Positions 32,181 to 63,643 of a DNA stretch of 64,000 nt are shown here, piece by piece. The position numbers and the translations under genes were made by a program. Each line of letters opens with the position of its first letter. Within the stretch, counting starts at the first letter, position 1. This stretch comes from Eubacteriales bacterium (GTDB lineage Bacteria; Bacillota; Clostridia; Oscillospirales; CAG-272): NCBI GenBank assembly GCA_045645405.1, contig JAZRIQ010000044.1:12152-76151 (forward strand). Direction: 5' to 3'. The notes beneath the pieces were generated by a model. The model saw only the letters and a list, made by a program, of their open reading frames with translations, was not told the origin of the DNA and searched no databases.

Positions 32181-32188
32181 TTGATTTT

Positions 32189-32216
32189 AAAAAGGCTGCT
32201 ACGAAGCAGCTTTTTT
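32189..32216 (+). terminator. Intra-operon terminator/attenuator after scfA
   Basis: Stem GGCTGCT-acga-AGCAGCT, followed by TTTTTT. Confidence 0.6.
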
Positions 32217-32221
32217 AATTA

Positions 32222-32350: not shown

Positions 32351-32352
32351 AT

Positions 32353-39159: not shown

Positions 39160-41229
39160 ATGGAAAAGTTAGACCAAAAGTATCAGGCGTTATTTACCCC
39201 CTGGAAGATAGGTAACGTTGAAATTAAAAACCGTATTGTGCTTTGCCCAATGGGCGGTACTTCACTTTTCGGTTGGATGAATATGTCAGGCAACAAATTT
39301 AACAAGGAGGCAGCTGAATTCTTCCTTGAAAAAGCGAAGAACAACGTAGGTCTTATCATTCCGGGCATTGCACCTATTAAGAGTACGTACAGAGGTCAAT
39401 GGCTCTATAAAAACAACAAAATGTTTGAGGAGCTAAAGGTGTTTATGGACGAAATCCATAAAACCGGCGCTAAATTATTTATTCAGATTACAGCAGGTAT
39501 GGGCCGCTCATTTGCTATCCCAACTCCACTTGTAAAAATACATAATATGCCCGTTGTTCGCAGCCTCGTTAAGCCAATTATCAACGTTCCTTACTTAAGC
39601 GCTTCCCCTTCCAAGCTTCCATCACGTTGGAGTGACAAGGTTAAGTGCCGTGAGATTACAGTTAAGGAAATTCAAGAAATTGTTGACGCTTTTGCTAAAA
39701 CCGCATTAAAGTGCAAGGAGGCAGGTGTTGACGGCGTTGAGGTACACGCAGTACACGAGGGCTACTTACTTGACCAATTCACAACAGAATATACAAACAA
39801 GCGCGAGGATGAATACGGCGGTTCATTTGAAAACCGCTACCGCTTTGCTACCGATATAGTTAAGGCTATAAAGGAATCCTGCGGTAAGGATTTCCCTGTT
39901 TCTCTCCGTTATTCTGTAACCTCCAAGGTTAAGGATTTCTGCGTTGGCGCAGTTCCCGGCGAGGAGTTTGAGGAAATGGGCAGAAATATGGAGGAAAGCG
40001 AAAAGGCAGTTAAGTATCTTGAGGAAGCGGGCTACGATATGTTAAACGCTGATAACGGTACTTACGACTCCTGGTACTGGGCACACCCACCGATGTATAT
40101 GCCTCAAAACTGCAATCTTGAGGACGTTTCTCACATTAAGAGCTTCGTAAAAATTCCTGTTGTTTGTGCAGGAAGAATGACTCCTGAGGTTGGCGCTCAA
40201 GCAGTTAAGGATAATAAGATTGACGCTATGGGCGTTGCAAGACAGTTCCTTGCAGATAGCGAATGGGTAACAAAGCTTATCGAAAACAGACTTGAGGATA
40301 TTCGTCCTTGTATTTGCTGTCACAACGCTTGCTTCAATATGTCTCACTATAAGGGTGTTGCAAACGCTCAGTCTATTCACGACGCAAGTCATATTGCAAG
40401 ATGCGCTCTTGACCCAAGAGTAATGCAATCAGATAAATACAAAATTGAGCCTGCTAAAACTGTAAAGAACGTTAGCGTAATCGGCGGCGGTATTGGCGGT
40501 ATGGAGGCTGCTTTGGTTCTTGCAAAGCGCGGTCATAACGTTACAATTTATGAAAAGTCAGGCAGTCTTGGCGGCGTATTTATAGCGGCAGCTGCTCCTT
40601 CCTTCAAGGAAAAGGACAAGATGCTTATCGCTTGGTACGAAAGAGAGCTTAAGAAATATCCAAATATTGACGTTCAGCTCCACACCGAGGTTAAGGACGT
40701 TTGGACGTTAGGCGCAGACGAGGTTATTATCGCAACCGGCGCTAAAGCTATTAAGCCAAACATTAAGGGTATGGAAAGAGCTGTTAGCGCTGTTGATTAC
40801 CTCCTTAACAAAGAAATTATCGGACGTGACGTTGTAGTTGTTGGCGGCGGTCTTACAGGCTGTGAAATCGCTTATGACCTTTACTTAAAGGGTAAGAATC
40901 CTATCATCGTTGAAATGAAGGACGATTTAATTGTTTCAGATAAGGTTCCTTTTGCTAACTCAAGCTATTTAAGAGATTTCTTCAAATCAAACGACGTTCC
41001 TGTATATCTTGAAACAAAGCTCATTAACGTTGGTAGCGACGGCGTAATGGTTTCCGATAAAGAGGGTAAATTCAAAATCACCTGTGATACGGTTATTTAT
41101 GCTCTTGGCTACAAGCCTAATCCTATGGTTAAAAAAGGTAAGAACGTTCACGTTATCGGCGACGCAAAAGAGGTTGGTAATTTAAGAACCGTTATTTGGA
41201 ACGCTTGGGACGTTTGTATGAAAATTTAG
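39160..41229 (+). CDS. Old-Yellow-Enzyme-family FMN/FAD/Fe-S oxidoreductase (2-enoate reductase / 2,4-dienoyl-CoA reductase-like)
   Basis: 689 aa. The N-terminal OYE barrel has IKNRIVLCPMGG and GVDGVEVHAVHEGYLLDQF. A Cys cluster CICCHNAC follows. The C-terminal region has Rossmann motifs VIGGGIGGME and VVGGGLTGCE. Confidence 0.8.
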   Translation: MEKLDQKYQALFTPWKIGNVEIKNRIVLCPMGGTSLFGWMNMSGNKFNKEAAEFFLEKAKNNVGLIIPGIAPIKSTYRGQWLYKNNKMFEELKVFMDEIHKTGAKLFIQITAGMGRSFAIPTPLVKIHNMPVVRSLVKPIINVPYLSASPSKLPSRWSDKVKCREITVKEIQEIVDAFAKTALKCKEAGVDGVEVHAVHEGYLLDQFTTEYTNKREDEYGGSFENRYRFATDIVKAIKESCGKDFPVSLRYSVTSKVKDFCVGAVPGEEFEEMGRNMEESEKAVKYLEEAGYDMLNADNGTYDSWYWAHPPMYMPQNCNLEDVSHIKSFVKIPVVCAGRMTPEVGAQAVKDNKIDAMGVARQFLADSEWVTKLIENRLEDIRPCICCHNACFNMSHYKGVANAQSIHDASHIARCALDPRVMQSDKYKIEPAKTVKNVSVIGGGIGGMEAALVLAKRGHNVTIYEKSGSLGGVFIAAAAPSFKEKDKMLIAWYERELKKYPNIDVQLHTEVKDVWTLGADEVIIATGAKAIKPNIKGMERAVSAVDYLLNKEIIGRDVVVVGGGLTGCEIAYDLYLKGKNPIIVEMKDDLIVSDKVPFANSSYLRDFFKSNDVPVYLETKLINVGSDGVMVSDKEGKFKITCDTVIYALGYKPNPMVKKGKNVHVIGDAKEVGNLRTVIWNAWDVCMKI

Positions 41230-41418
41230 TGGTCAGTGACTAGTGGTCAGTGATCAGCGATTAGATTAACTTCCTAACCGAAGAACAACTTTATTCCCCA
41301 CAATCAAATATATAATTAGGGGAGCGTTGCTCCCCTAAAATTAAATTTATTAGCGTTTTAGTGTCGTGTGGCGGTTTGTGTATCTACTAATCACTAGCCA
41401 CTGACCACTGACCACTAA
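41229..41418 (+). repeat. Complete heptamer-armed palindromic element (copy C)
   Basis: 5' arm GTGGTCA GTGACTA GTGGTCA GTGATCA GCGATTA GAT. The core contains the hairpin GGGGAGC-gtt-GCTCCCC. 3' arm ATCTAC TAATCAC TAGCCAC TGACCAC TGACCAC TAA. Confidence 0.85.
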
Positions 41419-41441
41419 AAGCGACTAAAAGGAGTATATTT

Positions 41442-44111: not shown

Positions 44112-44153
44112 AATATTATCGGTGACAGAGGCGCGCTGGATTTTATCATAGAT

Positions 44154-44190
44154 AATCTAATCTTGCTGGCAGCTAACTGCCAACCACTAA
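44154..44190 (+). repeat. Solo 3'-type heptamer arm (copy K)
   Basis: Reads AATCTAATC TTGC TGGCAGC TAACTGC CAACCAC TAA. It abuts and overlaps the azlD stop. Confidence 0.55.
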
Positions 44191-45198: not shown

Positions 45199-45230
45199 GT
45201 TTCGCTCCTTTGTGGTTCGCGCCCCTCACA

Positions 45231-45268
45231 GCCGATAGTAGTTAGCCGCCAGCCGTTAGTAAGGTTAG
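45231..45268 (+). repeat. 5'-type heptamer arm (copy D)
   Basis: Reads GCCGATA GTAGTTA GCCGCCA GCCGTTA GTAAGGTTAG. Confidence 0.7.
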
Positions 45269-45340
45269 TTTTTTGATTTATGTAATTATAGCATAGATTT
45301 TGTAACAATTCAATTAAAGCCATATTTTTTTCATTTACTG

Positions 45341-45401: not shown

Positions 45402-46175
45402 ATGAAAAAATTTTTAGTTTTACTTTTAGTTTTCGTTTTGATGTTTACTCTTGTTTCCTGTATGGGTGAGCAAGGTCCACAGGGCGAAAAGGGAGATAAG
45501 GGAGACCAAGGTATTCAAGGTGAGCAAGGTCTCCAAGGCGTACAGGGTGTACAAGGATCTCAGGGTGTACAAGGCGTTCAAGGTGAGCAAGGTCCACAGG
45601 GTGATAAGGGCGAGGACGGCAGAGGTATTCTAAAGACAGAAGTAATTGACGGTTGCCTTTGGATTACATATACCGACGCACCAAACACTCCAGTAAATGT
45701 AGGAAAGATACTTGAGGAAAGCAGTGACCTTGATTACTATCCTCTTGATGACGGCACATATGCTGTTGCCTGTGGAAATTCCAAGTATTTAAGCACTATT
45801 ATAATACCGGAAAAGCACAATGGAAAACCCGTATCTACCATATTAGAAAACGGTTTTAAGGATTGTCCAAGTCTTAAAAGTATAACGATTCCAAGTAGCG
45901 TTACAAGTATTGGTGACGATGCGTTTTACGGTTGTTCAAGTCTTACAAGCGTTGAAATACCAAGTAGCGTTACAAGTATTGGTCAATATGCGTTTAGTGG
46001 GTGTTCAAGTCTTACAAGCATTGTAATTCCAAATAGCGTTACATCTATTGGTTTCGGTGCGTTTGGATATTGTTCAAGCTTGACTATTTACTGTGAAGCC
46101 ACAAGCAAGCCAAGTGGATGGAATTATAGCTGGAATTATTCTAATCGTCCCGTTCAGTGGGGTTATACTGAATAA
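45402..46175 (+). CDS. Lipoprotein with a collagen-like Gly-X-Y tract and a BspA-type LRR C-terminal domain
   Basis: 257 aa. The signal peptide carries lipobox LVSC. Eighteen uninterrupted GXY triplets (GEQGPQGEKGDKGDQ...GEDGRG) occupy 45465-45626. LRR_5 repeats follow (IPSSVTSIG..AF.GCSSLTS). The C-terminus reads IYCEATSKPSGWNYSWNYSNRPVQWGY. Confidence 0.75.
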   Translation: MKKFLVLLLVFVLMFTLVSCMGEQGPQGEKGDKGDQGIQGEQGLQGVQGVQGSQGVQGVQGEQGPQGDKGEDGRGILKTEVIDGCLWITYTDAPNTPVNVGKILEESSDLDYYPLDDGTYAVACGNSKYLSTIIIPEKHNGKPVSTILENGFKDCPSLKSITIPSSVTSIGDDAFYGCSSLTSVEIPSSVTSIGQYAFSGCSSLTSIVIPNSVTSIGFGAFGYCSSLTIYCEATSKPSGWNYSWNYSNRPVQWGYTE

Positions 46176-46356: not shown

Positions 46357-46445
46357 CACGCACCCCGTTCCCTGTCGCCGTCGTTTCTTCTGGCGGGATG
46401 CCGAGGGCGCCATCCCCTACGGGTTTGTGCGTTTATGTATCCCGC

Positions 46446-46476
46446 TAACTGCTAACTGCTGGCGGCTGACGGCTAA
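46446..46476 (+). repeat. 3'-type heptamer arm (copy E)
   Basis: Reads TAACTGC TAACTGC TGGCGGC TGACGGC TAA. Confidence 0.75.
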
Positions 46477-46480
46477 AATA

Positions 46481-46502
46481 AAAAAGCACCGAAGTGCTTT
46501 TT
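46481..46502 (-). terminator. Terminator of the pyr operon
   Basis: Stem AAAAAGCAC-cgaa-GTGCTTTTT directly after the pyrI stop. A T-run follows on the minus strand. Confidence 0.75.
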
Positions 46503-46919
46503 TTATTTTGCTTTTGTTTCGCAGTATAGGCATCTATACACGCGGTTTTCTCTGTCGGTGAGCTTGAAGATATGTGGAAGCTCCTGCTCACAGGAGGAGA
46601 TACAGCGTGGGTTTTTGCAGGATATAACGTTTTTAAGCATTTCGGGCAAGCTGGCGTGCTTCTTTTCTACGATTTCGCCGTTTTTAATGATGTTTACTGT
46701 AACGTCCGGGTCAATGTAGCCTAAAATATCAAAATTAAGCTCAATGTCAGCATCAATTTTGATTATATCCTTTTTGCCAAGGCGGTTGCTTGGCGCATTT
46801 TTGATAATTGCAATAGGACAATCAAGCTCATCAAGCTTTAAAAGTCCTACGATTTCCATAGCCTTGCCTGCGGTAATATGGTCGATTACAAGACCGTTTT
46901 TGATTGCATCTACTCTCAT
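46503..46919 (-). CDS. pyrI: Aspartate carbamoyltransferase regulatory subunit
   Basis: 138 aa. N-terminus MRVDAIKNGLVIDHI. The C-terminal zinc motif is CKNPRCIS...YRCLYC. Confidence 0.88.
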   Translation of the reverse strand: MRVDAIKNGLVIDHITAGKAMEIVGLLKLDELDCPIAIIKNAPSNRLGKKDIIKIDADIELNFDILGYIDPDVTVNIIKNGEIVEKKHASLPEMLKNVISCKNPRCISSCEQELPHIFKLTDRENRVYRCLYCETKAK

Positions 46920-46930: not shown

Positions 46931-47845
46931 TTATTTGATGCCAAGGAGCTTTAAAATAAGCGCCATACGCATATATTTTCCGTTTAATGCCTGCTCAAAA
47001 TAGCATGCTCTTGGGTCGTCGTCAACGCTTACGCTGATTTCGTTTACTCTTGGGAGTGGATGCATAATGCAAAGGTCGTCCTTTGCATTTGTAAGCTTTG
47101 ACGGTGTTAAGATATAGCTATCCTTTAAGCGTAGGTAGTCCTCCTCGTTGAAGAATCTTTCCTTTTGTACTCTTGTCATATAAAGAATATCAAGAGATGG
47201 CATTGCTCCAACTAAATCGGTTGTTTCTACGTATTCAATACCGTTTTTGTCAAGAACGTCTGTCTTAACGTAGCCCGGTATTTTAAGCTCATCCGGAGAG
47301 ATAAGCACGAACTTGATATTAGCGTATCTTGACATTGCGGCAATAAGAGAGTGTACGGTTCTTCCGAACTTTAAGTCGCCGCAAAGACCGATTGTCAAAT
47401 TGTCAAATCTTCCCTTCTTACGCTTGATTGTAAGTAAGTCTGCAAGAGTTTGTGTTGGGTGGTTATGTCCGCCGTCACCTGCATTTACAACAGGGATTGT
47501 GGCATTCATAGCAGCAACAAGTGGCGCACCCTCCTTAGGATGGCGCATAGCCATAATATCTGCATAGCAGGATATCATTTTAGCAGTATCCGCAACGCTC
47601 TCTCCCTTTGCAGAGCTTGAGCTTGAAGCCTCCGAAAAGCCTAAAACGTTACCGCCAAGCTCATACATAGCCGCCTCAAAGCTTAAGCGTGTTCTTGTTG
47701 ACGGTTCAAAAAATAGCGTTGCTAATTTCTTACCGCGACACTTTTCGCTGTACTTTGATGGATTTGCAATTATATCAAGTGCGGTTTCGGTAAGCTCATC
47801 AAGCTCCTCTAATGAAAGCTCCTTAATATCAATTAAACTTCTCAT
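46931..47845 (-). CDS. pyrB: Aspartate carbamoyltransferase catalytic subunit
   Basis: 304 aa. Motifs [17 protein letters not shown] and HPLPR. Confidence 0.92.
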
Positions 47846-47850
47846 AAATT

Positions 47851-47869
47851 CCTTTCGCTTTGCGGAAGG
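47851..47869 (-). promoter_or_regulatory. Hairpin overlapping the pyrB ribosome-binding site
   Basis: The minus-strand RNA reads CCUUCCGC-aaa-GCGAAAGG-AAUUU-AUG. The 3' half of the 8-bp stem carries the only SD-like sequence (GAAAGGA). Confidence 0.45.
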
Positions 47870-47872
47870 ATA

Positions 47873-48018
47873 GTGGTCAGTGGTCAGTGGTCAGTGGTCA
47901 GCAGTTAGCTTATCACCATACTCACTACAACACCTACACTTTCTTTCGCTTTTATATTTTGTAGTTTACTTCAATAATCTAATCGTCTAGCCACTGATCA
48001 CTGACCACTGACCACTAA
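47873..48018 (-). repeat. Complete heptamer-armed palindromic element (copy F), pyrE-pyrB gap
   Basis: On the plus strand: GTGGTCA four times plus GCAGTTA, then a 65-nt core, then AATCTAATC GTC TAGCCAC TGATCAC TGACCAC TGACCAC TAA. Polarity follows the minus-strand mRNA. Confidence 0.88.
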
Positions 48019-48028
48019 TTTACGGTGC

Positions 48029-48679
48029 TTACGCTCCGTAAACCTCACGATACTTCTTAATTCTTGCAACGTTTTCAGCGTTTGCCGGGTCCTCTTCAAG
48101 GTACTCGATAATGTCGTAAACGTCAACAACTGAGTAAACAGGGAAGCCGAATTCCTCTTCAAGCTCAACCATTGCGCCCTTTTCGCCCTGACCCTTTTCC
48201 TTACGGTCAACCATTACGAAGCAAGCCGCAACCTTTACGCCATCAAGTCCCTTCATAATTTCCATTGTTTCACGAATAGCTGTTCCCGCTGTGATAACGT
48301 CCTCAACGATTACAACCTCCTCGCCTGATTGTGGCTTGTAGCCTACGAATACACCACCCTCGCCGTGGTCCTTAGCTTCCTTTCTGTTAAAGAAGAATGG
48401 CACGTCAAGACCGTTCTTTGAAAGTGCGATTGATGATGAAACTGCAATTGAAATACCTTTGTATGCAGGGCCAAACAATGCAGTACGCTTGTTACCTACC
48501 TTGTCAAGGTATGCCTTAGCATAGAATTCGCCAAGCTTAGCAATATGCTCGCCTGTCTTAATTTCGCCTGCGTTAATGAAATATGGGATTTTTCTACCGC
48601 TCTTTGCAGTAAAATCACCAAACTTTAATACACCTGCGCTTTGTAAAAACTGTATAAATTCTCTTTTGTATTGTTCCAT
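48029..48679 (-). CDS. pyrE: Orotate phosphoribosyltransferase
   Basis: 216 aa. Contains FGDFTAKSGRKIPYFIN and the PRPP loop VVIVEDVITAGTA. Confidence 0.9.
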   Translation of the reverse strand: MEQYKREFIQFLQSAGVLKFGDFTAKSGRKIPYFINAGEIKTGEHIAKLGEFYAKAYLDKVGNKRTALFGPAYKGISIAVSSSIALSKNGLDVPFFFNRKEAKDHGEGGVFVGYKPQSGEEVVIVEDVITAGTAIRETMEIMKGLDGVKVAACFVMVDRKEKGQGEKGAMVELEEEFGFPVYSVVDVYDIIEYLEEDPANAENVARIKKYREVYGA

Positions 48680-48691
48680 GATATTTCACAA

Positions 48692-48855
48692 GTGGTCAGT
48701 GTTCAGTGATCAGTGGTCAGCAATTTGCTTTTTGCCCACTTACAATAAACACACACTTACTCCTATTTAATATTTTCTTTTATTTCGATATAATCGTTAG
48801 TCTAGCCATCTGATCACTGACCACTGACGGCTGACCGCTGACGGCTGACCGCTGA
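48692..48855 (-). repeat. Complete heptamer-armed palindromic element (copy G), pyrF-pyrE gap
   Basis: On the plus strand: GTGGTCA GTGTTCA GTGATCA GTGGTCA GCAATTTGC, then the core, then TAATCGTTAG TC TAGCCATC TGATCAC TGACCAC TGACGGC TGACCGC TGACGGC TGACCGC TGA. Confidence 0.88.
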
Positions 48856-48863
48856 TGAATTCG

Positions 48864-49562
48864 TTATCCAACGAATTCAGCTACACAGCGTCTGTACGCC
48901 GCAACAGGGTCGCTAGCGCCTGTAATTGGTCTGCCTACTACGATATAGTCGCTTCCGATTTTCTTTGCCTCGGCAGGGGTCATAACACGAACTTGGTCGC
49001 CCTTATCGCCGTCTGCAAATCTAACGCCGGGAGTTACTGTTACGAAGTCCTTACCGCATACGCTATGAACCTTTTCTGCTTCAAGCGGTGAGCAAACGAT
49101 ACCTGCAAGACCTGCCTTTTTAGCGTTTGACGCGTAGTGCATTACAACCTTGTCCATTGGCTCGTTAATAAGAAGGTCATCTCTCATTCTTTCCTCACTT
49201 GTTGAGGTTAATTGAGTTACTGCAATAAGAAGCGGGCATGTGCCGTCCTCGCGTGTTAATCCCTCTAAAGCTGCTTCCATCATAGCGATTGTACCTGATG
49301 CGTGAACGTTTGTCATATCAACGTCAAGACGTGAAAGCACCGCCATTGCTTTTTTAACTGTATTCGGAATGTCGTGTAGCTTCAAATCAAGGAATATTTT
49401 ATGTCCTCTGCGCTTTATTTCTCTTACGATTTCCGGTCCTTCAGCGTTGAAAAGCTCCATACCGATTTTTACAAAGGGCTTTTCCTCCTGAAACTTATCA
49501 AGAAAACTGAAAACCTGCTCCTTGCTTGCAAAATCACAAGCGATAATTACGTCCTTTCCCAT
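48864..49562 (-). CDS. pyrF: Orotidine-5'-phosphate decarboxylase
   Basis: 232 aa. Motifs [12 protein letters not shown] and VVGRPIT. Confidence 0.9.
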
Positions 49563-50482
49563 TAGTGTGCTTCTCCTATAATATCCTTCAAATTTTTAAT
49601 ACCGTATTTTTCCATTACCCTTGGTAAGTCCTCAATGATTTTTGGACAAGCCATTGGGTCAACTAAGTTATGTGCGCCAATTTCAACCGCACTTGCGCCT
49701 GCAAGCATCATTTCAATTACGTCCTCGGCACAGGAAATTCCGCCGCCGCCAACGATTGGAATATTAACAGCCTCGTAAACCTGATATACCATTCTTATTG
49801 CCACAGGCTTAATGGCAGGACCTGAAAAGCCGCCCATTTTATTTGCCACAACCGGCTTCTTGCTCTTTAAATCTATTTTCATACCGAGTAAGGTGTTTAT
49901 AAGGCTTATACCGTCTGCTCCGTTTTCCTCGCAAGCCTTGGCAATTGTAACTATATCCGTTACGTTTGGCGAAAGCTTAATGATTACAGGCTTATTTGTA
50001 ACTGCCTTAACTGCCCTCGTTACCGCGCCCGCATTTTCGGGAGATACACCGAAGCTCATTCCACCACCGTGTACGTTAGGGCAGGATATGTTGATTTCAA
50101 ACCAACCGATAATATCCTCTTTATCTAATTTTTTAACTGTTTCAACGTATTCCTCAATGGAAAATCCGCTTACGTTTGCCATTACCTTCTTATTAAAGCA
50201 GGCTTTAAGCTTAGGAAGCTCCTCTGAAATTACCTTATCAACACCCGGATTTTGAAGTCCTACGGAGTTAATCATACCTCTTTCGCACTCTGCAATTCTC
50301 GGTGTGGGATTACCGAAGCGCGGATTTAACGTTGTTCCCTTAAACGAAAATGAGCCAAGACAGTTAATGTCGTATATTTCATTGAATTCGTAGCCGAAGC
50401 CAAAGGTGCCGCTGGCAGGAATCAAGGGATTATCAAGCTCAATACCGCAAAGCTCGGTTTTTAAAGCGTCATTCTTTACCAT
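49562..50482 (-). CDS. pyrD: Dihydroorotate dehydrogenase B, catalytic subunit
   Basis: 306 aa. Motifs [20 protein letters not shown] and GGGGI. Confidence 0.9.
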
Positions 50483-51204
50483 ATAATCTCCTCCTTCACC
50501 AAAACAGGTCCGTCCTTACAAATTCTCTTGTTTCCGTATTTGGTTTTGCAGGAGCAGCCCATACACGCGCCAAAGCCACAGCCCATTCTTTCCTCAAAGG
50601 AGAATTGACCGCTTGTTTTAGTGTTATTGTAAACCGCCTTAAGCATTGGCTCAGGTCCGCAGGTGTAAAAATATGTATAATCTACCATTTCAAAGGCGTT
50701 TGTTACAAAGCCCTTTACACCGTAGCTTCCGTCTGCGGTTGTCACAAATACGTTTGCTCCCAGCTTTTTAAATTCGTCCTCGTAAAAGACCTCGTCCTTT
50801 GAGTTGAAGCCCAAAATTACGCTTGGCTTTTTGCCCTCTCTTACAAGCTCACGGCAAAGCTGATACATAGGTGGAACACCTGCGCCGCCGCCTATTAAGA
50901 GTGGCTTTTCTCCGCTTAAAGAAATATCGTAGCCGTTACCAAGACCCGTTAAAACTAAAAGCTCTGTGTCCTTACCCATTTTAGCCATAGCCTCAGTGCC
51001 TTGCCCTACTACCTTGTATATAAGAGTTAAACTGCTACCGTCAACGCTACATACTGAGATAGGACGGCGTAAATAAAAGCCGTCAAGCTTTATATTTACA
51101 AACTGTCCGCACTTAATATCGGTGCAATCTCCCAAAAGCACCATTTCATAGGTGTTTTTAGCAATTTCCTTGTTTGTTAAAATCTTAAAAACTAAATCCT
51201 TCAT
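50476..51204 (-). CDS. pyrK: Dihydroorotate dehydrogenase B, electron-transfer (FAD/2Fe-2S) subunit
   Basis: 242 aa. Contains RRPISV and the C-terminal CGFGACMGCSC cluster motif. Confidence 0.88.
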   Translation of the reverse strand: MKDLVFKILTNKEIAKNTYEMVLLGDCTDIKCGQFVNIKLDGFYLRRPISVCSVDGSSLTLIYKVVGQGTEAMAKMGKDTELLVLTGLGNGYDISLSGEKPLLIGGGAGVPPMYQLCRELVREGKKPSVILGFNSKDEVFYEDEFKKLGANVFVTTADGSYGVKGFVTNAFEMVDYTYFYTCGPEPMLKAVYNNTKTSGQFSFEERMGCGFGACMGCSCKTKYGNKRICKDGPVLVKEEIIW

Positions 51205-51231
51205 TATTTACCTCGCTTTGCTCGGTTTTTA

Positions 51232-51357
51232 GCTGTTAGACGTTAGCCGCCAGCGGTCAGCAAAATTAGCAAATGCATTACTTTTAACGAATAGTACCGT
51301 ACGTAATGCAATCAATAATCAAATCTCGCTAACTGCTGACTGCTAATTGCTAACTGC
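51232..51357 (-). repeat. Complete heptamer-armed palindromic element (copy H), carB-pyrK gap
   Basis: On the plus strand: GCTGTTA GACGTTA GCCGCCA GCGGTCA GCAAAATTAGC. The core contains the GCATTAC...GTAATGC hairpin. Then CAATAATCAAATCTCGC TAACTGC TGACTGC TAATTGC TAACTGC. Confidence 0.88.
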
Positions 51358-51360
51358 TAT

Positions 51361-51381
51361 CGAAAGCGGAAACCGCTTTCG
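51361..51381 (-). other. Perfect 9-bp hairpin directly after the carB stop
   Basis: Reads CGAAAGCGG-aaa-CCGCTTTCG. No U-tract follows on the minus strand, so it is not a canonical terminator. Confidence 0.5.
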
Positions 51382-51382
51382 G

Positions 51383-54300
51383 TTATGCATCGATTGTGGA
51401 TATTGTAAGTGTGATTTCCTCTAAAACGTCAAGTAAAATTCTTACTGTATCAAGAGACGTAAAGAGCGAGATATTGTTTTCAATTGCAAGATGACGGATT
51501 TCGTAGCCGTCCTTTTGGTGTGAGCCGTGGCTTGAAGAAGCGTCGCTTGTGTTAATTACGTAAGCAATATGTCCTTGACGCATTGTTTCCGGAATATCAT
51601 TTGAGCCTTCGCCGATTTTGTGCTTTACTCTTGTTCTTATGCCATGCTCCTTTAAGAACTTAGCAGTGCCCTCGGTTGCCTCAATATTAAAGCCGAGGTT
51701 GTAGAAGCGGCGGATAAGCGGAAGCGCCTCCTCCTTATCGTCCTCTGCAATTGTTGCAAGAATTGTGCCGTAGTTCTGTACCTGCATACCCGATGCCTGA
51801 AGCGCCTTATAGAATGCGCGGTTCAAGGTGTCGTCATAACCGATTGCCTCACCGGTTGACTTCATTTCCGGGGAAAGGTAAGCGTCAATGCCGCTGATTT
51901 TCTTGTATGAGAATACAGGAACCTTACAGTACCATCTCTTCTTTTCCTGTGGATAGAGGTCGAAAATTCCAAGCTCCTTAAGTGACTTGCCAAGGATAAC
52001 CTCTGTTGCGATGTCTGCAAGTGAGTATCCTGTAGACTTAGAAAGGAACGGAACAGTTCTTGATGAACGCGGGTTAACCTCAATGATATAAACGTCATCG
52101 TTTTGGTCAACGATAAACTGAATGTTGAAAAGACCTATAATGCCAATTCCAAGACCGAGCTTCTTTGAGTAGGTCAAAATCTTGCCCTTAACCTTATCTG
52201 AAATTGAGAATGACGGATAAACGGAAATTGAGTCACCTGAGTGAACGCCCGTTCTTTCAACAAGCTCCATAATACCTGCAACGAATACGTCGCGTCCGTC
52301 GCAAATTGCGTCTACCTCAACCTCCTTGCCCTTGATATAGTGGTCAACGAGAACAGGCTTGTCAACGTCAATTTCAACAGCTGTCTTAAGGTACTGACGA
52401 AGCTGCTTTTCGTTACCTACAAGCTGCATTGCGCGTCCACCAAGAACGAAGGAAGGACGAACAAGAACAGGATAGCCAACCTCTTTAGCAACTCTTACGC
52501 CGTCCTCAATATTCGTAACGGCTTGTCCCTTTGGCTGTGGAATATCAAGCTCCTCAAGAATCTTCTCAAAGGAATCTCTGTTTTCTGCTCTGTCAATAGC
52601 TTCGCAATCTGTACCGATAAGCTTAACTCCGCGCTCAGCAAGGGGAGCTGCTAAGTTGATAGCTGTCTGTCCGCCAAGAGAAGCAATAACGCCGTCGGGC
52701 TTTTCAAACTCAATAACCTCCATTACGTCCTCTACTGTAAGCGGCTCAAAATAGAGCTTATCAGAGGTTGTATAGTCGGTGGAAACGGTTTCGGGGTTAT
52801 TGTTGATAATGATAGCCTCGTAGCCGGACTCCTTAATAGTCTTTACCGCATGAACGGTTGAGTAGTCAAACTCAACGCCTTGACCGATACGGATAGGACC
52901 TGCGCCTAAAACGATAATTTTCTTTCTGTCTGTCAAGATTGACTCGTTTTCACCCTCGTTTGATGAGTAGAAATAAGGAATGTACGCACCAACGTGAGCA
53001 GTATCAACCATTTTGAAGATTGGTACAATCTTATTTTCGTGACGGAAATTGTAAACGTCAATTTCCTTTGTATTCCAAAGCTTTGCAATATACTTATCGC
53101 TAAAGCCCATTTTCTTTGCTGCTCTTAAAATTTCAACGCTTCTTACGTTGTCTGAAAGAGTTTTTTCCATATCGGTAATCTTTTTGAAGGATTCCAGGAA
53201 GTAAGACGTAATCTTTGTTACGTTATGAAGCTCCTCAACAGTTGCACCGTGACGGAAAAGCTGACAAATTGCAAAAATATTGTCGTCGTGGAACTCCTCA
53301 ACGTACTCGTAAAGCTCCTTGTCGCTGTAAGAATCGAATTTAGCCATATACAAGTGGCAAACGCCGATTTCAAGAGAACGAACCGATTTAAGCAAGCATT
53401 CCTCAAGGTTAGCGCCGATACCCATACACTCGCCCGTTGCCTTCATCTGTGTGCCGAGTTTATTTGGAACTGTTGTAAATTTATCGAATGGAAAGCGTGG
53501 GAATTTAGCAACAACGTAGTCAAGCTTTGGCTCGAAGGACGCCTTTGTTCCCGCAACCTCAATCTCATCAAGAGTCATACCAACAGCAATTTTAGCAGTT
53601 ACTCTTGCAATAGGATATCCGCTGGCTTTGGAAGCAAGTGCGCTGGAACGTGAAACTCTCGGATTTACCTCAATTAAGTAATACTCGCTTGTTTCCGGAT
53701 TCAATGCAAACTGTACGTTACAGCCACCCTCAATCTTTAATGCACGGATAAGTCTTATAGCGCTGTCGTTAAGCATCTTCAAATCGTGGTCGTTGAGAGT
53801 CATAATAGGAGCTACAACTATTGAGTCACCTGTATGAACGCCAACGGGGTCTATATTTTCCATACCGCAAATTGTAATTGCATTATCCGCACCGTCACGC
53901 ATAACCTCAAATTCGATTTCCTTAAAGCCCTTTACGCTCTTTTCAACAAGCACCTGGTGAACAGGAGATGCATCAAGCGCGCCCTGAGCAAGCTCTACGT
54001 ACTCTTCCATATTGTATGCAAAGCCACCGCCTGTGCCACCGAGGGTAAATGCAGGACGTAAAACAACAGGGAAGCCGATTTTTTCAATAGCAACCATAGC
54101 CTCGTCCATATTGTTAGCGATTTCGGAAGGAATTACAGGCTCGCCGATTGACTCGCAAAGCTCCTTAAATAATTCTCTGTCCTCTGCTCTTTCAATGGAA
54201 GCGCTTGACGTACCGAGAAGCTCTACTCCGCTCTCTTTAAGAACGCCCTTCTTTTCAAGAAGCATAGCCATATTAAGTCCTGTCTGACCGCCGATACCGG

Positions 54301-55788: not shown

Positions 55789-55817
55789 AATATTCTCTCC
55801 TGCTTTCATACCGATTT

Positions 55818-55851
55818 CAAAAAAACACCTTATCTTTCGACAAGATAAGGT
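55818..55851 (-). terminator. Leader (attenuator) terminator upstream of pyrC
   Basis: The minus-strand RNA reads ACCUUAUCUU-gucga-AAGAUAAGGU, a perfect 10-bp stem, then G plus U7. It ends about 30 nt before the pyrC ATG and lies downstream of the promoter at 55915-55943. Confidence 0.65.
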
Positions 55852-55914
55852 TATATTATTCCTGCCGAAAAAACAGTCTTATTTGAAACCGCAGTTTTGG
55901 TTTTATCGCTCTAT

Positions 55915-55943
55915 ATTATAGCAAATATATATTACTTTGTCAA
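55915..55943 (-). promoter_or_regulatory. Consensus promoter of the pyr operon
   Basis: Minus strand reads TTGACA, 17 nt, TATAAT. Confidence 0.65.
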
Positions 55944-56840: not shown

Positions 56841-56869
56841 TTTACAATTTTGCTTTTGCGTGTTATAAT
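56841..56869 (+). promoter_or_regulatory. Candidate promoter of the LRR lipoprotein gene
   Basis: Reads TTTACA, 17 nt, TATAAT. Confidence 0.5.
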
Positions 56870-56900
56870 TGTATATATTGAAAAATCAAAGGAGCTTATT

Positions 56901-58217
56901 ATGAAAAAAATTTCTGTTTTACTTTTGATTATAGCCACGGTGCTTTTTGCCGGAATGGCTCTTTCTTCCTGCAATAAAGCTACTGAGGGACTTGAATTTT
57001 ATCCTTACGGCGACGAGGGGTATTCCGTTGGAATTGAAAACGGTAAAGCTCTTAAGAAAATTGTAATTCCCAAGGAGCATGACGGAAAGCCCGTTGTTGC
57101 TATTGCAAAAAAAGGATTTTTAGGTTGCGAAAACGCTCAATCAGTTTATATTCCCGACTCCGTTAAAATAATAGGGGAAAATGCCTTTCAAAACTGCTAC
57201 AAGCTTGAAAAGCTCACTTTGCCCGGCTCCGTTACCGAAATTGGAAGCAACGCTTTCAAGGGCTGTAAGGCTTTAACCTCTCTTAACCTACCTGAAGGAA
57301 CGGTATCCGTTGGTGAATTTGCGTTTAGTAACTGCAAGGGTATTACGAACATCAGCTTCTCAAGCACGGTTACAACTATTGGTGCTTGTGCATTCGAGGG
57401 CTGTACCTCTCTTACCTCTGTTTCGATTCCGAAAAACGTAACCGCTATCGGTGACGGTGCGTTTCAGAACTGCTCCTCACTTACCGTTATTTCTGTTGAT
57501 GAAAACAGCGAAAGCTATAAAACTGATGACAATATTCTTTACAGTAAGGACGGCTGTACGCTCATTCAGCACCCTGCAGGAAAATCAGTCTTTGAATTTA
57601 TCGTTCCCGACACAGTTACAAGAGTAGGCGCCCACGCCTTTGCAGGCTGTAACGGTCTTATTCGCATAACAATACCTAAAACAGCCACATCAGTTGGTGA
57701 AAAGGCATTTGATAAATGTCCTATTGAAAACGCCACCGTTCCGACCTGTGCCCTTTCTGAGCTTCCAAAGAACACAATTAAGCTTCTTGAAATTAACGGC
57801 GGTGAGAAAATAGAGAAGGAAGCCTTCAAAGACTGTGATACGCTCAAGCGTCTCACCATTGCGGGAAGCGTTAAGGAAATCGGCGACAGCGCATTTTACG
57901 GCTGTAACGATTTAAGAAACGTAATTATTTCCGAAGAGGGGCTTGAGGTTATTGACGAATACGCATTTAAGGGCTGTCCTTATCTTGAAAAAATCGACCT
58001 TCCCGAATCACTTAAAACCATCGGCTCTTCTGCATTTAAGGACTGCATTCGAATTGCAAAAATTATTATTCCCGAGGGTGTAACCAAAATTGACAGATTT
58101 GCCTTTGAGGGTTGCTTGTCCTTAAGAATATATTGCAGAGGCACAATGGGCTCAGGCTGGAACGACTGGTGGAACAGCTCAGACTGCCCCGTTACCTGGC
58201 GCTACGTGGGTAAATAA
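56901..58217 (+). CDS. BspA-type LRR (LRR_5) lipoprotein
   Basis: I start it at MKKISVLLL, with AAAGGAG upstream (the ORF track starts at 56850). Lipobox is LSSC. LRR_5 repeats run throughout. The C-terminus reads IYCRGTMGSGWNDWWNSSDCPVTWRY. Confidence 0.75.
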   Translation: MKKISVLLLIIATVLFAGMALSSCNKATEGLEFYPYGDEGYSVGIENGKALKKIVIPKEHDGKPVVAIAKKGFLGCENAQSVYIPDSVKIIGENAFQNCYKLEKLTLPGSVTEIGSNAFKGCKALTSLNLPEGTVSVGEFAFSNCKGITNISFSSTVTTIGACAFEGCTSLTSVSIPKNVTAIGDGAFQNCSSLTVISVDENSESYKTDDNILYSKDGCTLIQHPAGKSVFEFIVPDTVTRVGAHAFAGCNGLIRITIPKTATSVGEKAFDKCPIENATVPTCALSELPKNTIKLLEINGGEKIEKEAFKDCDTLKRLTIAGSVKEIGDSAFYGCNDLRNVIISEEGLEVIDEYAFKGCPYLEKIDLPESLKTIGSSAFKDCIRIAKIIIPEGVTKIDRFAFEGCLSLRIYCRGTMGSGWNDWWNSSDCPVTWRYVGK

Positions 58218-58227
58218 AAGCCCTCTG

Positions 58228-58256
58228 TTGACAAAACGTTTAGTGTATGATAAAAT
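58228..58256 (+). promoter_or_regulatory. Candidate promoter
   Basis: Reads TTGACA, 17 nt, TAAAAT. Confidence 0.5.
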
Positions 58257-58304
58257 ATAGACGTTACTTTTTCATTGGTTACTTAAATCTATAGGAGAAT
58301 TATT

Positions 58305-59360
58305 ATGAAAAAAATACTCATTTTGCTTTTAGCTTTTGCAATTTTTACTGCGATGATGTTGGTTTCCTCATCATGCTCCTGCAACAATCAGGGTGATGAC
58401 TCGTCCGATACCGGCTCTGTACCCGACTCAAGCAATGCTGATACAGGCTCCGAGCAGGATACAGGCAGTACTGACTCAAATAATCAAGACAAGCCAAGCG
58501 ACGATACTCAAAATCAAAAGCCCGAGCTTTTATTTGCGTTACTTGATGATGGCACGTACGAGGTTTCATGCGGCTCTGCTATCAATTCAACCGAAATTAC
58601 AGTTCCAGAGTCCTACGAGGGCAAGGCTGTTACTTCCGTTGCGGAATTTGGCTTTGCAGACTGCTCCAGCTTAAAGACAATCGTATTACCAAGCACCATT
58701 AAAGAAATCAAAGCGTCTGCCTTTTACGGATGCAGCGCTCTTACCTCTTTGGAAATTCCAAATAGTGTTACCGTAATAGGTAAGGAGGCGTTTTTGCTTT
58801 GCAGCAGTCTTAAAACTATCACCATTCCGACAGGCGTTACAGAAATCGGTCAATATGCATTTACAGGCTGCTATTGTCTTGAAAGCATTTCAGTTGACGA
58901 AAATAACGCAAACTACAAATCAATAGACGGCAATTTATATTCCGCTGATGAAAAAACTCTTATTAAGTACGCTCAAGGCAAGCTTGATACCTCATTTACA
59001 GTTCCAAGCTCCGTTACAAAAATAGACGGAAGAGCCTTTATAGACTCTCACTCGCTTTTGACAATTGAAATTCCAAACGGAGTTACAAGTATAGGTGATG
59101 AGGCTTTTACTAACTGTATTTTACTCTCGACCATTAACATTCCGACAAGCGTAACAAGCATTGGCAAAAGCGCATTTAATAACTGCTCATTGCTTCAATC
59201 CATTGTGATTCCAAACTCAGTTACCGAGATTGGTGAATCTACTTTCGCTAACTGCTCCAAGCTGACAATTTATTGCGAGGCTGAAAACGCACCGCTGGGC
59301 TGGAGCAATCTTTGGAACTACTCTGAAAGACCTGTTGAATGGGGCTACACAGGCGAGTAA
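58305..59360 (+). CDS. BspA-type LRR (LRR_5) lipoprotein with an S/D/T-rich linker
   Basis: 351 aa. Lipobox-like SSSCSC, then a low-complexity segment DDSSDTGSVPDSSNADTGSEQDTGSTDS, then LRR_5 repeats. The C-terminus reads IYCEAENAPLGWSNLWNYSERPVEWGY. Confidence 0.75.
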   Translation: MKKILILLLAFAIFTAMMLVSSSCSCNNQGDDSSDTGSVPDSSNADTGSEQDTGSTDSNNQDKPSDDTQNQKPELLFALLDDGTYEVSCGSAINSTEITVPESYEGKAVTSVAEFGFADCSSLKTIVLPSTIKEIKASAFYGCSALTSLEIPNSVTVIGKEAFLLCSSLKTITIPTGVTEIGQYAFTGCYCLESISVDENNANYKSIDGNLYSADEKTLIKYAQGKLDTSFTVPSSVTKIDGRAFIDSHSLLTIEIPNGVTSIGDEAFTNCILLSTINIPTSVTSIGKSAFNNCSLLQSIVIPNSVTEIGESTFANCSKLTIYCEAENAPLGWSNLWNYSERPVEWGYTGE

Positions 59361-59942: not shown

Positions 59943-59971
59943 ATTTTAAGCGTGATATACTCTCTACATAA
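59943..59971 (+). promoter_or_regulatory. Promoter upstream of the lysine riboswitch
   Basis: Reads TTGACA, 17 nt, TATACT. Confidence 0.6.
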
Positions 59972-59981
59972 AAATAGAGGT

Positions 59982-60126
59982 TGCGGATATTATGATAAAC
60001 GCAGACAGGGCTAAGGTCTGCGCGGTAAAGGAATGTCCGCCGAAAGTATGCTTTTTCCCAAGGAAGCATATTTGGGGATTGCGAGAATATCGCAATAACT
60101 GTCACCAACACGGTGGAGTGCTATTA
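59982..60126 (+). promoter_or_regulatory. Lysine riboswitch (L-box) aptamer
   Basis: It contains the L-box landmarks in order. These are AUAGAGGUUGCG (5' P1/P2), GUCCGCCGAAAG, UUUGGGG, the AUUGCGA-gaau-AUCGCAAU stem, and AACUGUCACC-aacac-GGUGGAGUGCUAU (3' P1). Confidence 0.8.
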
Positions 60127-60142
60127 AAGGTTATGATTTTTT

Positions 60143-60239: not shown

Positions 60240-61805
60240 ATGGAAGGCACATTTTGGGCGTTTTTGCCCGCAATTATTGCCATAGTGCTCGCTCTCGTTT
60301 CAAAGCAGGTTTACATTTCCCTGTTCTTTGGAATCTTTGTTGGCGCTATGATGTACGCAGGTGGTAATCCACTTGAAGCGTTATTCACTCTCTTTAGCGT
60401 AATGAGTGAAAAGGTAGGAGGTAACGTTCCTATTATCGTATTCCTCGTTGTTCTTGGAATACTTGTAGTTCTTATGCAAAAATCCGGCGGAGCGAAGGCT
60501 TATGGCGACTGGGCAGGTAAAAAAATAAAGACCAAGGGCGGCGCTTTAGCTGCAACCGCAGGTCTTGGCTGTCTAATTTTCGTTGACGACTATTTTAACT
60601 GCTTAACCGTTGGCTCGGTTATGCGTCCTGTTACAGACAAGTTCAAGGTTTCAAGAAGCAAGCTTGCTTACATAATTGACGCAACTGCTGCACCTATATG
60701 TATCATAGCCCCGATTTCAAGCTGGGCTGCCGCTGTTACAGGTGAGCTTGAGGGCAACGGTCTTGTTATGTTTATTAAGACTATTCCTTTTAACGTTTAC
60801 GCACTTTTAACCATCGCTATGGTATTTGCTCTTTGCTTCTTCAAGTTCGACTTCGGCAAAATGAAGAAGAACGACGATATAGCCGAGCAAACAGGTGACG
60901 TTCATTCAGGTGTTTCCTCTGACAACTCTAACGGAAACGAAATTCAGGCAAATCCACGCGGCACAGTTAAGCACCTTTTAATACCGGTTATTATTCTTAT
61001 TGCTTGCTGTATCGGCGGTATGATTTACACAGGCTTCTTCTACAACTGGGATACCGGACTTATTGATAGCGAGCTTCAATCCGCTAACGTAATCGAAGCG
61101 TTTTCTAACTGTGACGCAGGTATGTCACTTGCCATTGGCTCAATTATTGCTCTCTTTATAATTTCCATATACTATATGGTAACAAAGGTTGTTTCCTTTA
61201 AGGATATTATGGGCAGCTTTACAGACGGCTTTAAGGCTATGGTTCCTGCTATTCTTATTCTTACCTTTGCTTGGACAATTTCAGGCATTATGGGCGCAAA
61301 GGGCGGCTATCTTGACGCTCAGTCTTTCGTTGAAAACAACCTTGCGGGAAGCAGCTTCCCTCAATTCATTTTCCCTGCAATATTCTTTATTTTAGCAGGC
61401 TTAATCGCATTTGCAACAGGCACGTCCTGGGGAACCTTCGGTGTTCTCGTTCCGATTGCAGTAACACTTTTGGGCGGTAGCGCAAACGTAACAACCCTTA
61501 TGCTTTTAACCGTTTCCGCAACTCTTGGCGGCGCAGTATTCGGCGACCATATTTCACCGATTTCAGATACAACTATTCTTGCTTCCGCAGGTGCAGAATG
61601 TAACCACGTTGAGCATGTAAACACTCAGCTTCCGTACGCATCACTCGTTGCGGTAATTGCGGCAATTTCCTACTTAATTGCAGGCGCTTGCGCTTCACTT
61701 GGCGGGGTTCTTTGCGCTCTTATTATGTGGATAGCTACCGCTATACTCTTTGTCGGCGCTATATTCCTAATTAAGTACCTTGGCAATAAAAAGACAACAA
61801 AATAA
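60240..61805 (+). CDS. NhaC-family transporter (probable lysine-regulated transporter)
   Basis: 521 aa polytopic protein. The N-terminus FWAFLPAIIAIVLALVSKQVYISLFFGIF is typical of the Na+/H+ antiporter NhaC family. It lies directly downstream of the L-box. Confidence 0.75.
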   Translation: MEGTFWAFLPAIIAIVLALVSKQVYISLFFGIFVGAMMYAGGNPLEALFTLFSVMSEKVGGNVPIIVFLVVLGILVVLMQKSGGAKAYGDWAGKKIKTKGGALAATAGLGCLIFVDDYFNCLTVGSVMRPVTDKFKVSRSKLAYIIDATAAPICIIAPISSWAAAVTGELEGNGLVMFIKTIPFNVYALLTIAMVFALCFFKFDFGKMKKNDDIAEQTGDVHSGVSSDNSNGNEIQANPRGTVKHLLIPVIILIACCIGGMIYTGFFYNWDTGLIDSELQSANVIEAFSNCDAGMSLAIGSIIALFIISIYYMVTKVVSFKDIMGSFTDGFKAMVPAILILTFAWTISGIMGAKGGYLDAQSFVENNLAGSSFPQFIFPAIFFILAGLIAFATGTSWGTFGVLVPIAVTLLGGSANVTTLMLLTVSATLGGAVFGDHISPISDTTILASAGAECNHVEHVNTQLPYASLVAVIAAISYLIAGACASLGGVLCALIMWIATAILFVGAIFLIKYLGNKKTTK

Positions 61806-62928: not shown

Positions 62929-62959
62929 CCGCCAACCGTTAGCGGTCAGCAGATTAGAT
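62928..62959 (+). repeat. 5'-type heptamer arm (copy I)
   Basis: Reads GCCGCCA ACCGTTA GCGGTCA GCAGATTAGAT. Its first G is the last base of the upstream TAG stop. Confidence 0.75.
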
Positions 62960-63054
62960 TTACGCACAACTTGCAAAGAATAAAAGAATAAGCACCGAAA
63001 GGAGTGCCTACCATAAAGCAGGTGCGCCAATCGGTGCTTATTTTCTATTATGTT

Positions 63055-63525: not shown

Positions 63526-63550
63526 TTTATTTCTCCTAATCAAGTACGCT

Positions 63551-63591
63551 ATCTGCTGTTGGCTGTCCAATGACTACTGACCGCTAACACC
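63551..63591 (+). repeat. 3'-type heptamer arm (copy J), degenerate
   Basis: Reads ATCTGC TGTTGGC TGTCCAA TGACTAC TGACCGC TAACACC. It contains CTGACCGCTAAC, the exact complement of GTTAGCGGTCAG in copy I. Confidence 0.6.
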
Positions 63592-63643
63592 TCACCACAG
63601 CTACGCGGAGCCTCCCCTCAAGGGAAAGCATAGTTACTGACAA

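Follow-up and report, generated by a model that had tools for sequence, protein, structure and literature searches.

Candidate foldback-type heptamer repeats in the long gaps of a pyr operon from an uncultured gut Clostridia bacterium

Tandem arrays of 7-nt units have been described in the intergenic DNA of several groups of bacteria. Of the GGGAATC heptamers of Xanthomonas, 89-93% are intergenic, and a genome has 70-75 convergent pairs with the two members on opposite strands (Rehm et al., 2015, PMC4692102). These arrays lie ∼28 nt from the open reading frame (ORF) on their 5′ side vs ∼160 nt from the downstream ORF, in any ORF orientation (PMC4692102). Cyanobacterial STRR heptamers form hairpins between genes of one operon, for example hupS-hupL; transcript stabilization or translational coupling has been suggested as their role (PMC2670836). 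TAACTGA direct repeats are found in Beggiatoaceae, Cyanobacteria and Bacteroidetes (MacGregor, 2015, PMC4679880), in arrays placed a few nt upstream of start codons that are without canonical ribosome-binding sites (PMC4679880). The function of heptamer repeats was still called unknown in 2022 (bioRxiv 10.1101/2022.06.06.494920). Their function and origin are long-standing questions. Heptamer repeats are said to have been described in cyanobacteria in 1990. Here, paired heptamer arrays are described from the gaps of a pyr operon of an uncultured gut Clostridia bacterium (contig JAZRIQ010000044.1 of assembly GCA_045645405.1). The whole stretch of DNA analyzed, 64,000 nt in length, is referred to as the window. 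It has a G+C content of 40% and a coding share of 90%, encodes a SCIFF peptide and a radical-SAM maturase, and its PyrE is 97% identical to PyrE of a metagenome-assembled genome (MAG) titled Eubacteriales bacterium SGB_476 (GCA_045533435.1).

The elements share with STRR arrays their tandem 7-nt units in intergenic DNA and their hairpins inside an operon. They differ in the phylum of the host, a gut member of the Eubacteriales, and in their short arms, which consist of about four units and a defined inner motif; paired ∼40-nt modules are not part of the description of STRR arrays. Named STRR units are CCCCAGT, TTGGTCA and CAACAGT, and TTGGTCA is reportedly the STRR2 unit of Mazel (1990). The window units GTGGTCA and GCNGTYA are identical to none of these three, GTGGTCA being one base off TTGGTCA. 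The Xanthomonas arrays are similar in their convergent pairs, in abutting genes and in their variation of length and sequence among close relatives. Their unit is unrelated and capable of forming G-quadruplexes (PMC4692102), and their sites are reported to be more conserved than control intergenic regions (PMC4692102), whereas the window elements turn over rapidly. With the TAACTGA repeats the elements share a unit that fits TRAC-NN-x as the C-rich arm (TAACTGC) and changes in steps of 7 nt, but TAACTGA sets are almost all direct, with one inverted set among 170 in the Guaymas genome (PMC4679880). The kind of element is already known; the phylum, the unit and the ∼40-nt arm module are new. An earlier reading made from the letters alone (the sequence-only reading) had gone further and presented the elements as novel, but intergenic heptamer arrays had been described before, including convergent pairs ∼28 nt from the 5′-side ORF (PMC4692102, PMC2670836, PMC4679880). 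The 7-nt periodicity, which it had called unusual, is described as the one most often seen in long simple repeats of bacteria (PMC4679880, PMC4692102).

The explanation favored here, with about even confidence, is that the long pyr gaps hold lineage-specific, dispersed palindromic repeats of foldback type, which were inserted at the DNA level, are probably co-transcribed and fold into long hairpins in the mRNA. Arm modules of ∼30-45 nt, each consisting of STRR-like heptamers and an inner motif, converge in pairs on a locus-unique core. Insertions would be tolerated only in non-coding DNA that separates a stop codon from the ribosome-binding site of the following gene. The elements are gained, lost, duplicated, nested and swapped between strains, and arm length would change through slippage of 7 or 14 nt. 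The left edge, often a reverse-complement copy of the upstream gene end, would arise by template-switch (fold-back) synthesis or near-palindrome correction during formation or upkeep. Once transcribed with the operon, the elements would form imperfect stems of 25-45 bp. The most likely effect on the mRNA would be RNase III cleavage or a barrier to 3′-exonucleases, separating and uncoupling neighboring cistrons as a dispensable side effect and not as essential regulation.

Sixteen to 17 arms were located in the window, at 11 non-coding sites and with none in genes, as the sequence-only reading had held for all its copies. That reading had listed at least 12 arms; the family is real, but the arm at 63551 is only a weak copy and the arm at 46446 lies in a spurious ORF running across a terminator. 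Head-to-tail 7-nt units were present in arrays of three or more. Four GNNGTYA units with up to 2 mismatches were matched 20 times in the window vs 0 times in 100 shuffles, and there were eight period-7 runs against 0-1 for each other period from 4 to 12. A profile hidden Markov model (HMM) built from 21 arms recovered its own 16 window arms and one weak arm at 63587-63538, with no match in coding DNA. Aligned in the G-rich orientation, an arm is ∼30-45 nt long and consists of about four GNNGTYA units followed by a common inner motif, GCAAGATTAGAT or GCRAGATTTGATTATTGAT. Arms of the GTGGTCA sub-type often have GTGGCTA as their innermost unit, and arms of the GCNGTYA sub-type carry a recurring off-pattern unit, GCCGCCA. 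The alignment places the inner motif on both arms, so that it is part of the inverted repeat. A further sequence, GATTAGAT, occurs six times in the window and adjoins an arm at four of these places.

Two convergent arms were found at five sites, which include all three pyr gaps of ∼180 nt. The arms of a pair are 77-96% complementary and lie 55-134 nt apart around an AT-rich, locus-unique core, in keeping with the design of arm, AT-rich core and complementary arm proposed by the sequence-only reading for one family. The folding check that it had suggested gave predicted energies between −44 and −69 kcal/mol; compared with dinucleotide shuffles, z lay between −3.7 and −8.8. The arms are homologous modules and not products of independent slippage, because they share the inner motif GCAAGATTAG, the recurring GCCGCCA and a 24-nt match between copies A and H (blastn of cores), and because H/A-type ends recur at the pyrF-pyrE junction of strain locus L332.

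The operon lies on the minus strand in the order pyrC-carB-pyrK-pyrD-pyrF-pyrE-pyrB-pyrI, with gene names assigned from Pfam matches. Its three long gaps, each filled as had been claimed, measure 183 nt (pyrE-pyrB, 47846-48028), 184 nt (pyrF-pyrE, 48680-48863) and 178 nt (carB-pyrK, 51205-51382). The remaining junctions overlap or are at most 41 nt long (pyrI/pyrB 11 nt, carB/pyrC 41 nt) and are without elements, again as described earlier. The units previously quoted for copies F, G and H were all present at their positions. Element F (47873-48015, minus strand) fills the pyrE-pyrB gap, with 27 nt paired at 96% and a predicted dG of −67.2 kcal/mol (z −8.8). In mRNA sense its arm 1 (48015-47987) reads GTGGTCA GTGGTCA GTGATCA GTGGCTA and is followed by GACGATTAGATTA, the core (47986-47905) and arm 2 (47904-47873), which is TGACCAC four times. 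Element G (48692-48852, minus strand; dG −50.2, z −3.7) fills the pyrF-pyrE gap. Its arm 1 (48852-48810) consists of 6 units and passes into the core; the outer 4 units are of GC-type and do not pair. Arm 2 is at 48720-48692. The first arm of G is followed by GATGGCTAGACTAACGATTAT and not by GATTAGAT as had been reported. Element H (51232-51357, minus strand; dG −50.8, z −4.8) fills the carB-pyrK gap and is 90% identical to L209 across 82 nt. Its arm 1 (51357-51328), GCAGTTA GCAATTA GCAGTCA GCAGTTA, is followed by GCGAGATTTGATTATTGAT (51325-51311) and the core, with arm 2 at 51261-51232.

A 12/12 match to a sigma-70-type promoter was located at 55943-55915, upstream of F, G and H, and the operon terminator lies 3′ of pyrI at 46503-46480, outside these elements. 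No terminator-like site was found on the minus strand within F, G or H, and their stems are not followed by a U tract. Since the elements are inside the operon and without a terminator, they are probably co-transcribed with it. The pyr leader (55810-55943) has a terminator-like hairpin at 55851-55827 ahead of pyrC and contains no PyrR site at the Rfam gathering score. The pyrE start at 48679 has no obvious Shine-Dalgarno sequence between arm 2 of G and the ATG (CTGACCACTTGTGAAATATCATG). In strains with other fillers, AAGGAGAAACAAAAATG is found at the position preceding the pyrE start.

The pyr junctions were compared with those of related strains. Relatives with 80% identical PyrE, from metagenomes, keep the gene order and have junctions of 10-18 nt or overlapping genes, without arrays. 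No heptamer arms were found at the pyr locus in the clade whose PyrE is 90-93% identical. Where PyrE was 96-100% identical, strains showed up to five states at the pyrF-pyrE junction. Element G is present in the window, L331 and L336, whereas L332 has another heptamer element, whose ends are of H/A type. L333 and L334 have an array of CCTACAY; L202, L209 and L335 have a filler of AGCTAAATT/AATTTAGCT and small hairpins; and in L201 the junction is empty and 26 nt long. L332, L333/L334 and L335 have identical PyrE protein and represent three of these states. L331 and L029 are loci of one MAG, SGB_476. The carB-pyrK junction was of H type, GTGGTCA type (L336), AGGATAT/ATCCTAT type (L331) or AGGGGC/CCCCTAT type (L201, L332). 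The first arm of G is 6 units long in the window vs 4 in L331 and L336, and second arms are duplicated in L202, L209 and L331. The pyrE-pyrB core is recognizably homologous in the window and L201, with arms that differ (GTGGTCA vs GCGGTTA/GCCGCCA). The array-free relatives at 80% identity and the many states among close strains indicate that the elements are recent DNA-level insertions with quick turnover, as judged from these sequence comparisons.

Genes are enclosed by arms at two places. In L202 two MORN-repeat genes lie between two H-type arms at carB-pyrK (5603-7338). In the window the convergent arms E (45229-45279, plus strand, 33 nt from the azlC start codon) and E2 (46425-46477, minus strand, adjoining the pyrI terminator at 46480-46503) enclose a gene with LRR_5 and collagen repeats (45402-46175), which occupies the place of a MerR gene and a 178-aa gene in L202. 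No sign that cargo moves with the arms was obtained for the L202 MORN genes: their homologues are at most 54% identical and matched through the repeats, and the sole match to a fused PRTase-MORN protein is unrelated. In L208 a 493-aa gene without a Pfam match (2064-3545) is inserted at carB-pyrK.

Many fillers of several classes begin just past the stop codon with the 7-11 nt that end the upstream gene, in reverse complement; the stop codon of that gene then lies in the loop of a hairpin. For pyrE (48019-48042, minus strand) this hairpin is TTTACGGAGC GTAA GCACCGTAAA. The third base of the glycine codon there is mirrored in the copy: GGAGC/GCTCC in L201, GGTGC/GCACC in L202 and L332, and GGCGC/GCGCC in L209 and L331. 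This co-varying synonymous position is one pair of three types (C-G, U-A, A-U), and 22 of 500 shuffles reach its score. At the pyrF end (48857-48878, minus strand) the hairpin GAATTCG TTGGATAA CGAATTC is formed; this copy of the coding sequence (CDS) end is missing at the empty L201 junction. A small hairpin, CCGAAAGCGG TTT CCGCTTTCG, stands immediately 3′ of the carB stop (51361-51382, minus strand) without a U tract. On the other side of F, the 3′ half of the hairpin TCCTTCCGC AAA GCGAAAGGA (47850-47870, minus strand) holds the ribosome-binding site of pyrB. This hairpin is present in every strain with a heptamer element at pyrE-pyrB and absent from L204, L205 and L208. Judged from their sequences, the flank copies look like template-switch or near-palindrome-correction events, though they may have been selected as 3′ hairpins.

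Several results weigh against inserted repeats acting in the mRNA as proposed above. No clear target-site duplication was seen on comparing the empty L201 site with filled sites, and the TA/TAG at the arm bounds belongs to the unit. No transposase or RAYT (Y1) gene was found in the 38 window genes scanned, a set outside the cluster at 16457-27904. By blastn the cores of different loci have nothing in common except in orthologues and in the 24-nt A/H stretch, unlike ordinary copy-and-paste elements. The stems contain 40 G-U pairs in sense and 34 in antisense; there is no sense-strand excess that would point to selection at the RNA level. In our reading of the sequences, the arms of H, and likewise those of the L201-type element, often leave the two variable unit positions unpaired, which means that pairing is not kept up in detail. 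The elements are also dispensable in close relatives.

Other known classes were compared. As in REP/BIME and REPINs (Bertels and Rainey, 2011, PMC3116915), the repeats are extragenic and abundant, form long hairpins as inverted pairs, also occur singly, and lie between operon genes and at gene 3′ ends. The REP unit is itself palindromic and the window arms are not, the heptamer substructure is particular to the latter, and the spacers are unrelated between copies in contrast to REPINs. REP/BIME were rejected on this ground, since a unit of 20-40 nt that is itself an imperfect palindrome is needed and pairing here is between arms 55-134 nt apart. The REPIN trait of two inverted repeats in one hairpin is present, as is the MITE trait of terminal inverted repeats conserved between copies. 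A classical MITE was rejected, the internal sequence not being common to copies. The earlier statement that the elements are not REP, BIME, ERIC or classical MITE was thus upheld. Drosophila foldback elements are eukaryotic, kilobase-sized and moved by a known transposase; they are similar by analogy only, in their inverted arms of short tandem repeats, variable arm length, heterogeneous loops and occasional cargo genes. The intercistronic RNase III hairpins of phage T7 early mRNA are conserved, specific sites, and their long stems between cistrons of one transcript serve as the model for a possible function of the co-transcribed elements. In an integron attC the inverse core RYYYAAC comes first on the strand and the core GTTRRRY second; attC was rejected because the arm order is reversed here, with the GTTAG-type arm first and the CTAAC-type arm second. 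A reading of TRA in the C-rich unit as a three-frame stop codon was dropped, other filler classes having no stops in their arms. Chi-like (AGCGG), DnaA-box and −35-like readings of the unit failed because the defining bases are at variable positions or mismatched.

Four alternatives to inserted foldback repeats were weighed. The elements could be purely local in origin, through in-place slippage of a 7-nt seed and template-switch inverted duplication with no movement between loci. The 7- or 14-nt steps of arm length between strains, the unique cores and the edges, which repeat the flanking CDS end and the ribosome-binding site in reverse complement, are all consistent with this. So are the same-species fillers of the same architecture with other units (AGGATAT/ATCCTAT, AGGGGC/CCCCTAT, TGAAAT/ATTTCA, AGCTAAATT/AATTTAGCT) and the dominance of period 7 in many phyla regardless of unit among the matches listed below. 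We nevertheless regard local origin as unlikely: unrelated loci share GCCGCCA in the same place, the motifs GCAAGATTAGAT and AGATTTGATTATTGATT and the 24 nt of A and H, H/A-type ends stand at a third locus in L332, and independent slippage would not recreate such non-periodic features. A classical non-autonomous transposon (MITE) or a REPIN, in which a transposase or RAYT from another part of the genome would bind the arms as terminal inverted repeats, would account for the arms, which are ∼40 nt long and conserved between loci, for elements of 130-200 nt with AT-rich cores, for insertions polymorphic between strains and solo arms, and for the cargo between arms (the LRR/collagen gene in the window, two MORN genes in L202). 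This also seems doubtful, given the unrelated cores, the lack of a readable target duplication, the absence of a transposase from the 38 window genes scanned, and orthologous copies with homologous cores whose arm units differ, GTGGTCA in the window and GCGGTTA/GCCGCCA in L201.

The arrays might instead be a selected cis-acting RNA, with 7-nt-periodic YAG arrays bound by a ring-shaped protein like HutP or controlling downstream translation. The HutP hexamer recognizes, on each face, three XAG triplets that lie in an RNA of 21 nt (PMC2425495), and the G-rich arms read YAG-NNGU at that period. C-rich arms end 5-27 nt ahead of start codons, those of pyrE and the SCIFF maturase being without a Shine-Dalgarno sequence, in parallel with the TAACTGA repeats (PMC4679880). 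Against this, the elements are dispensable and give way to unrelated fillers in strains whose proteins are the same, the flanked genes are unrelated (pyr, SCIFF, azlCD, lipase and polysaccharide genes), G4 and T5 of the unit are conserved though a HutP-type reading needs neither, and the G-U pairs have no strand asymmetry and the elements no Rfam match. A cis-acting RNA is accordingly held to be quite improbable. Bacillus PyrR attenuators sit in pyr operon gaps, and the strong hairpins in the long gaps of this operon are in the same position. Intrinsic terminators or PyrR-type attenuators partitioning the operon are even so very improbable, and the sequence already contradicts them: F, G and H have neither a U tract nor a minus-strand terminator-like site, the same elements occur at unrelated genes, and no PyrR or other Rfam match was obtained at E up to 1. 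In the Rfam search proposed by the sequence-only reading, no family matched the elements; a lysine riboswitch was the sole match in the window at the gathering score, and 47800-51420 gave only chance-level matches at E up to 1.

The arm order of the preferred foldback-type repeats was compared across phyla. An exact four-unit scan of GTDB genomes gave at least 120 stretches, and a scan of IMG/VR likewise at least 120; the counts that follow refer to the matches listed. The GTDB matches include Cyanobacteria, Acidobacteriota, Planctomycetota, Verrucomicrobiota, Chloroflexota, Bacteroidota and Oscillospiraceae. At these loci 229 arrays had period 7 vs at most 12 for any other period from 5 to 11, and 90 of the 229 had other units. 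The 7-nt period is general and the unit sequence is not. Opposite-strand neighboring arrays were convergent and not divergent (9:0 and 8:0). A unit-agnostic search found 33 inverted heptamer pairs, with G>C in the first arm of 31. Of their two flanking genes, solo arrays were closer to the one that lies 5′ on the G-rich strand (58:21 and 70:38; medians 26-29 vs 90-124 nt); crude ORF calls may inflate this count beside start codons, and leave arrays beside stops, which were also counted, unaffected. After a stop codon the G-rich form prevailed in genome matches (47:14, p = 3e-5), and was not significantly in excess in viral contigs (31:21). From our reading of the coordinates, the window has 5 convergent pairs and 0 divergent, and 5 of 6 solo arms obey the rule. 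The geometric rule is robust: on both strands a G-rich arm at the 5′ side is followed by a C-rich arm at the 3′ side, with each arm abutting the neighboring gene regardless of the direction of that gene. Polarity relative to transcription, as claimed in the sequence-only reading, was weak: copy A goes against it, and both arms carry the motif that was to mark it. If a C-rich arm were transcribed first, it might be naked, rut-like RNA open to Rho loading, and this might account for the arm order.

It is conceivable, though improbable, that the heptamer elements and the other filler classes are products of one undescribed foldback mechanism acting on prokaryotic DNA. A reverse-complement copy of the gene end would be made first, then G-rich and then C-rich arms; cargo genes could be enclosed (LRR/collagen in the window, MORN in L202), and the mechanism would act in many phyla. 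If true, it would explain the general G-rich-first order and the gene-abutting arrays. The G-rich-first rule (31/33 listed pairs) and the reverse-complement copies of gene ends constrain any mechanism that may be proposed. The gut lineage also offers natural alleles at one operon, empty, with two heptamer sub-types or with unrelated fillers, between flanking proteins of at least 96% identity, some of them fully identical. What an element does to transcript processing and to the expression of neighboring cistrons should therefore be readable from metatranscriptomes or testable in reporters.

Element B (32219-32352, plus strand; dG −44.1, z −4.3) is placed between the terminator of the SCIFF peptide gene and the start of the SCIFF maturase at 32353, whose ATG is 5 nt from the C-rich arm of B and has no Shine-Dalgarno sequence. 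This region (32040-33735) holds the gene of a SCIFF-type six-cysteine peptide (32040-32180; MEHIKTLNTGNLCESAKNGGCGECQTSCQSACKTSCGIANQQCENK), a terminator-like hairpin (32194-32216), element B and the radical-SAM maturase. Element C (41226-41419, plus strand) has the FMN oxidoreductase gene (39160-41229) on one side and the aconitase X gene on the other; its arms are 82% complementary over 33 nt, with dG −68.9 and z −7.0. Its arm 1 begins within the TAG stop codon of the oxidoreductase gene. Solo arm A with GATTTGATTATTGAT (8524-8575, plus strand), found with the HMM and containing the 24-nt match to H, is ∼25 nt upstream of a start codon at 8499 and points against both flanking minus-strand genes. 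Solo arm D (44147-44190, minus strand) starts at the azlD TAG stop and is followed by GATTAGAT and a bidirectional terminator. Solo arm I (62924-62971, plus strand) starts at the TAG stop of a GDSL-lipase gene and is likewise followed by GATTAGAT. Arm J (63538-63598, minus strand) is weak and degenerate (HMM E 5.7e-5) and was not among the arms that built the model.

The other filler classes are of one architecture, with a unit repeated on the left, its reverse complement repeated on the right and small hairpins with GAAA, UUCG or GAA loops between. They comprise TGAAAT/ATTTCAAG in L204, AGCTAAATT/AATTTAGCT in L202, L209, L335 and L336, AGGGGC/CCCCTAT in L201 and L332, AGGATAT/ATCCTAT in L331 and CCTACAY in L333. 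A second kind of filler in the window (8580-8690) has a period of ∼22 nt and consists of AATCA, a small hairpin (CGCAAAGCG, ATGCAAAGCGTT, CCGCACGTGGTGCGG) and GTATGG; a 26-nt stretch of it matches L029 of the SGB_476 MAG at 92%. In the same MAG pyrB is called as two ORFs of 77 aa and 207 aa (L331, 6929-7843), from a frameshift or an assembly error. The PyrE calls P0001 (328 aa) and P0003 (278 aa) are far longer than 216 aa, and their ORFs may extend upstream via a stop-free G-rich arm. Among contigs classed as viral, L241 (IMG/VR, 10 kb, 61% GC) has twelve GTGGTCA arrays, 9 of them on one strand, and L245, L254 and L255 are likewise array-rich, so heptamer arrays are common on such contigs.

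The lysine riboswitch (RF00168, 87.5 bits) is at 59967-60131, upstream of a gene of the Na+/H+ antiporter family (60240-61805). Four BspA-type LRR_5 proteins are encoded within the 64 kb (35115-36881, 45402-46175, 56850-59360), and the one at 45402-46175 additionally has collagen-like GXY repeats and 69-nt DNA repeats. An ORF of 1016 aa in 3750-6800 has no Pfam match and contains internal 99-nt tandem repeats at 5646-5859.

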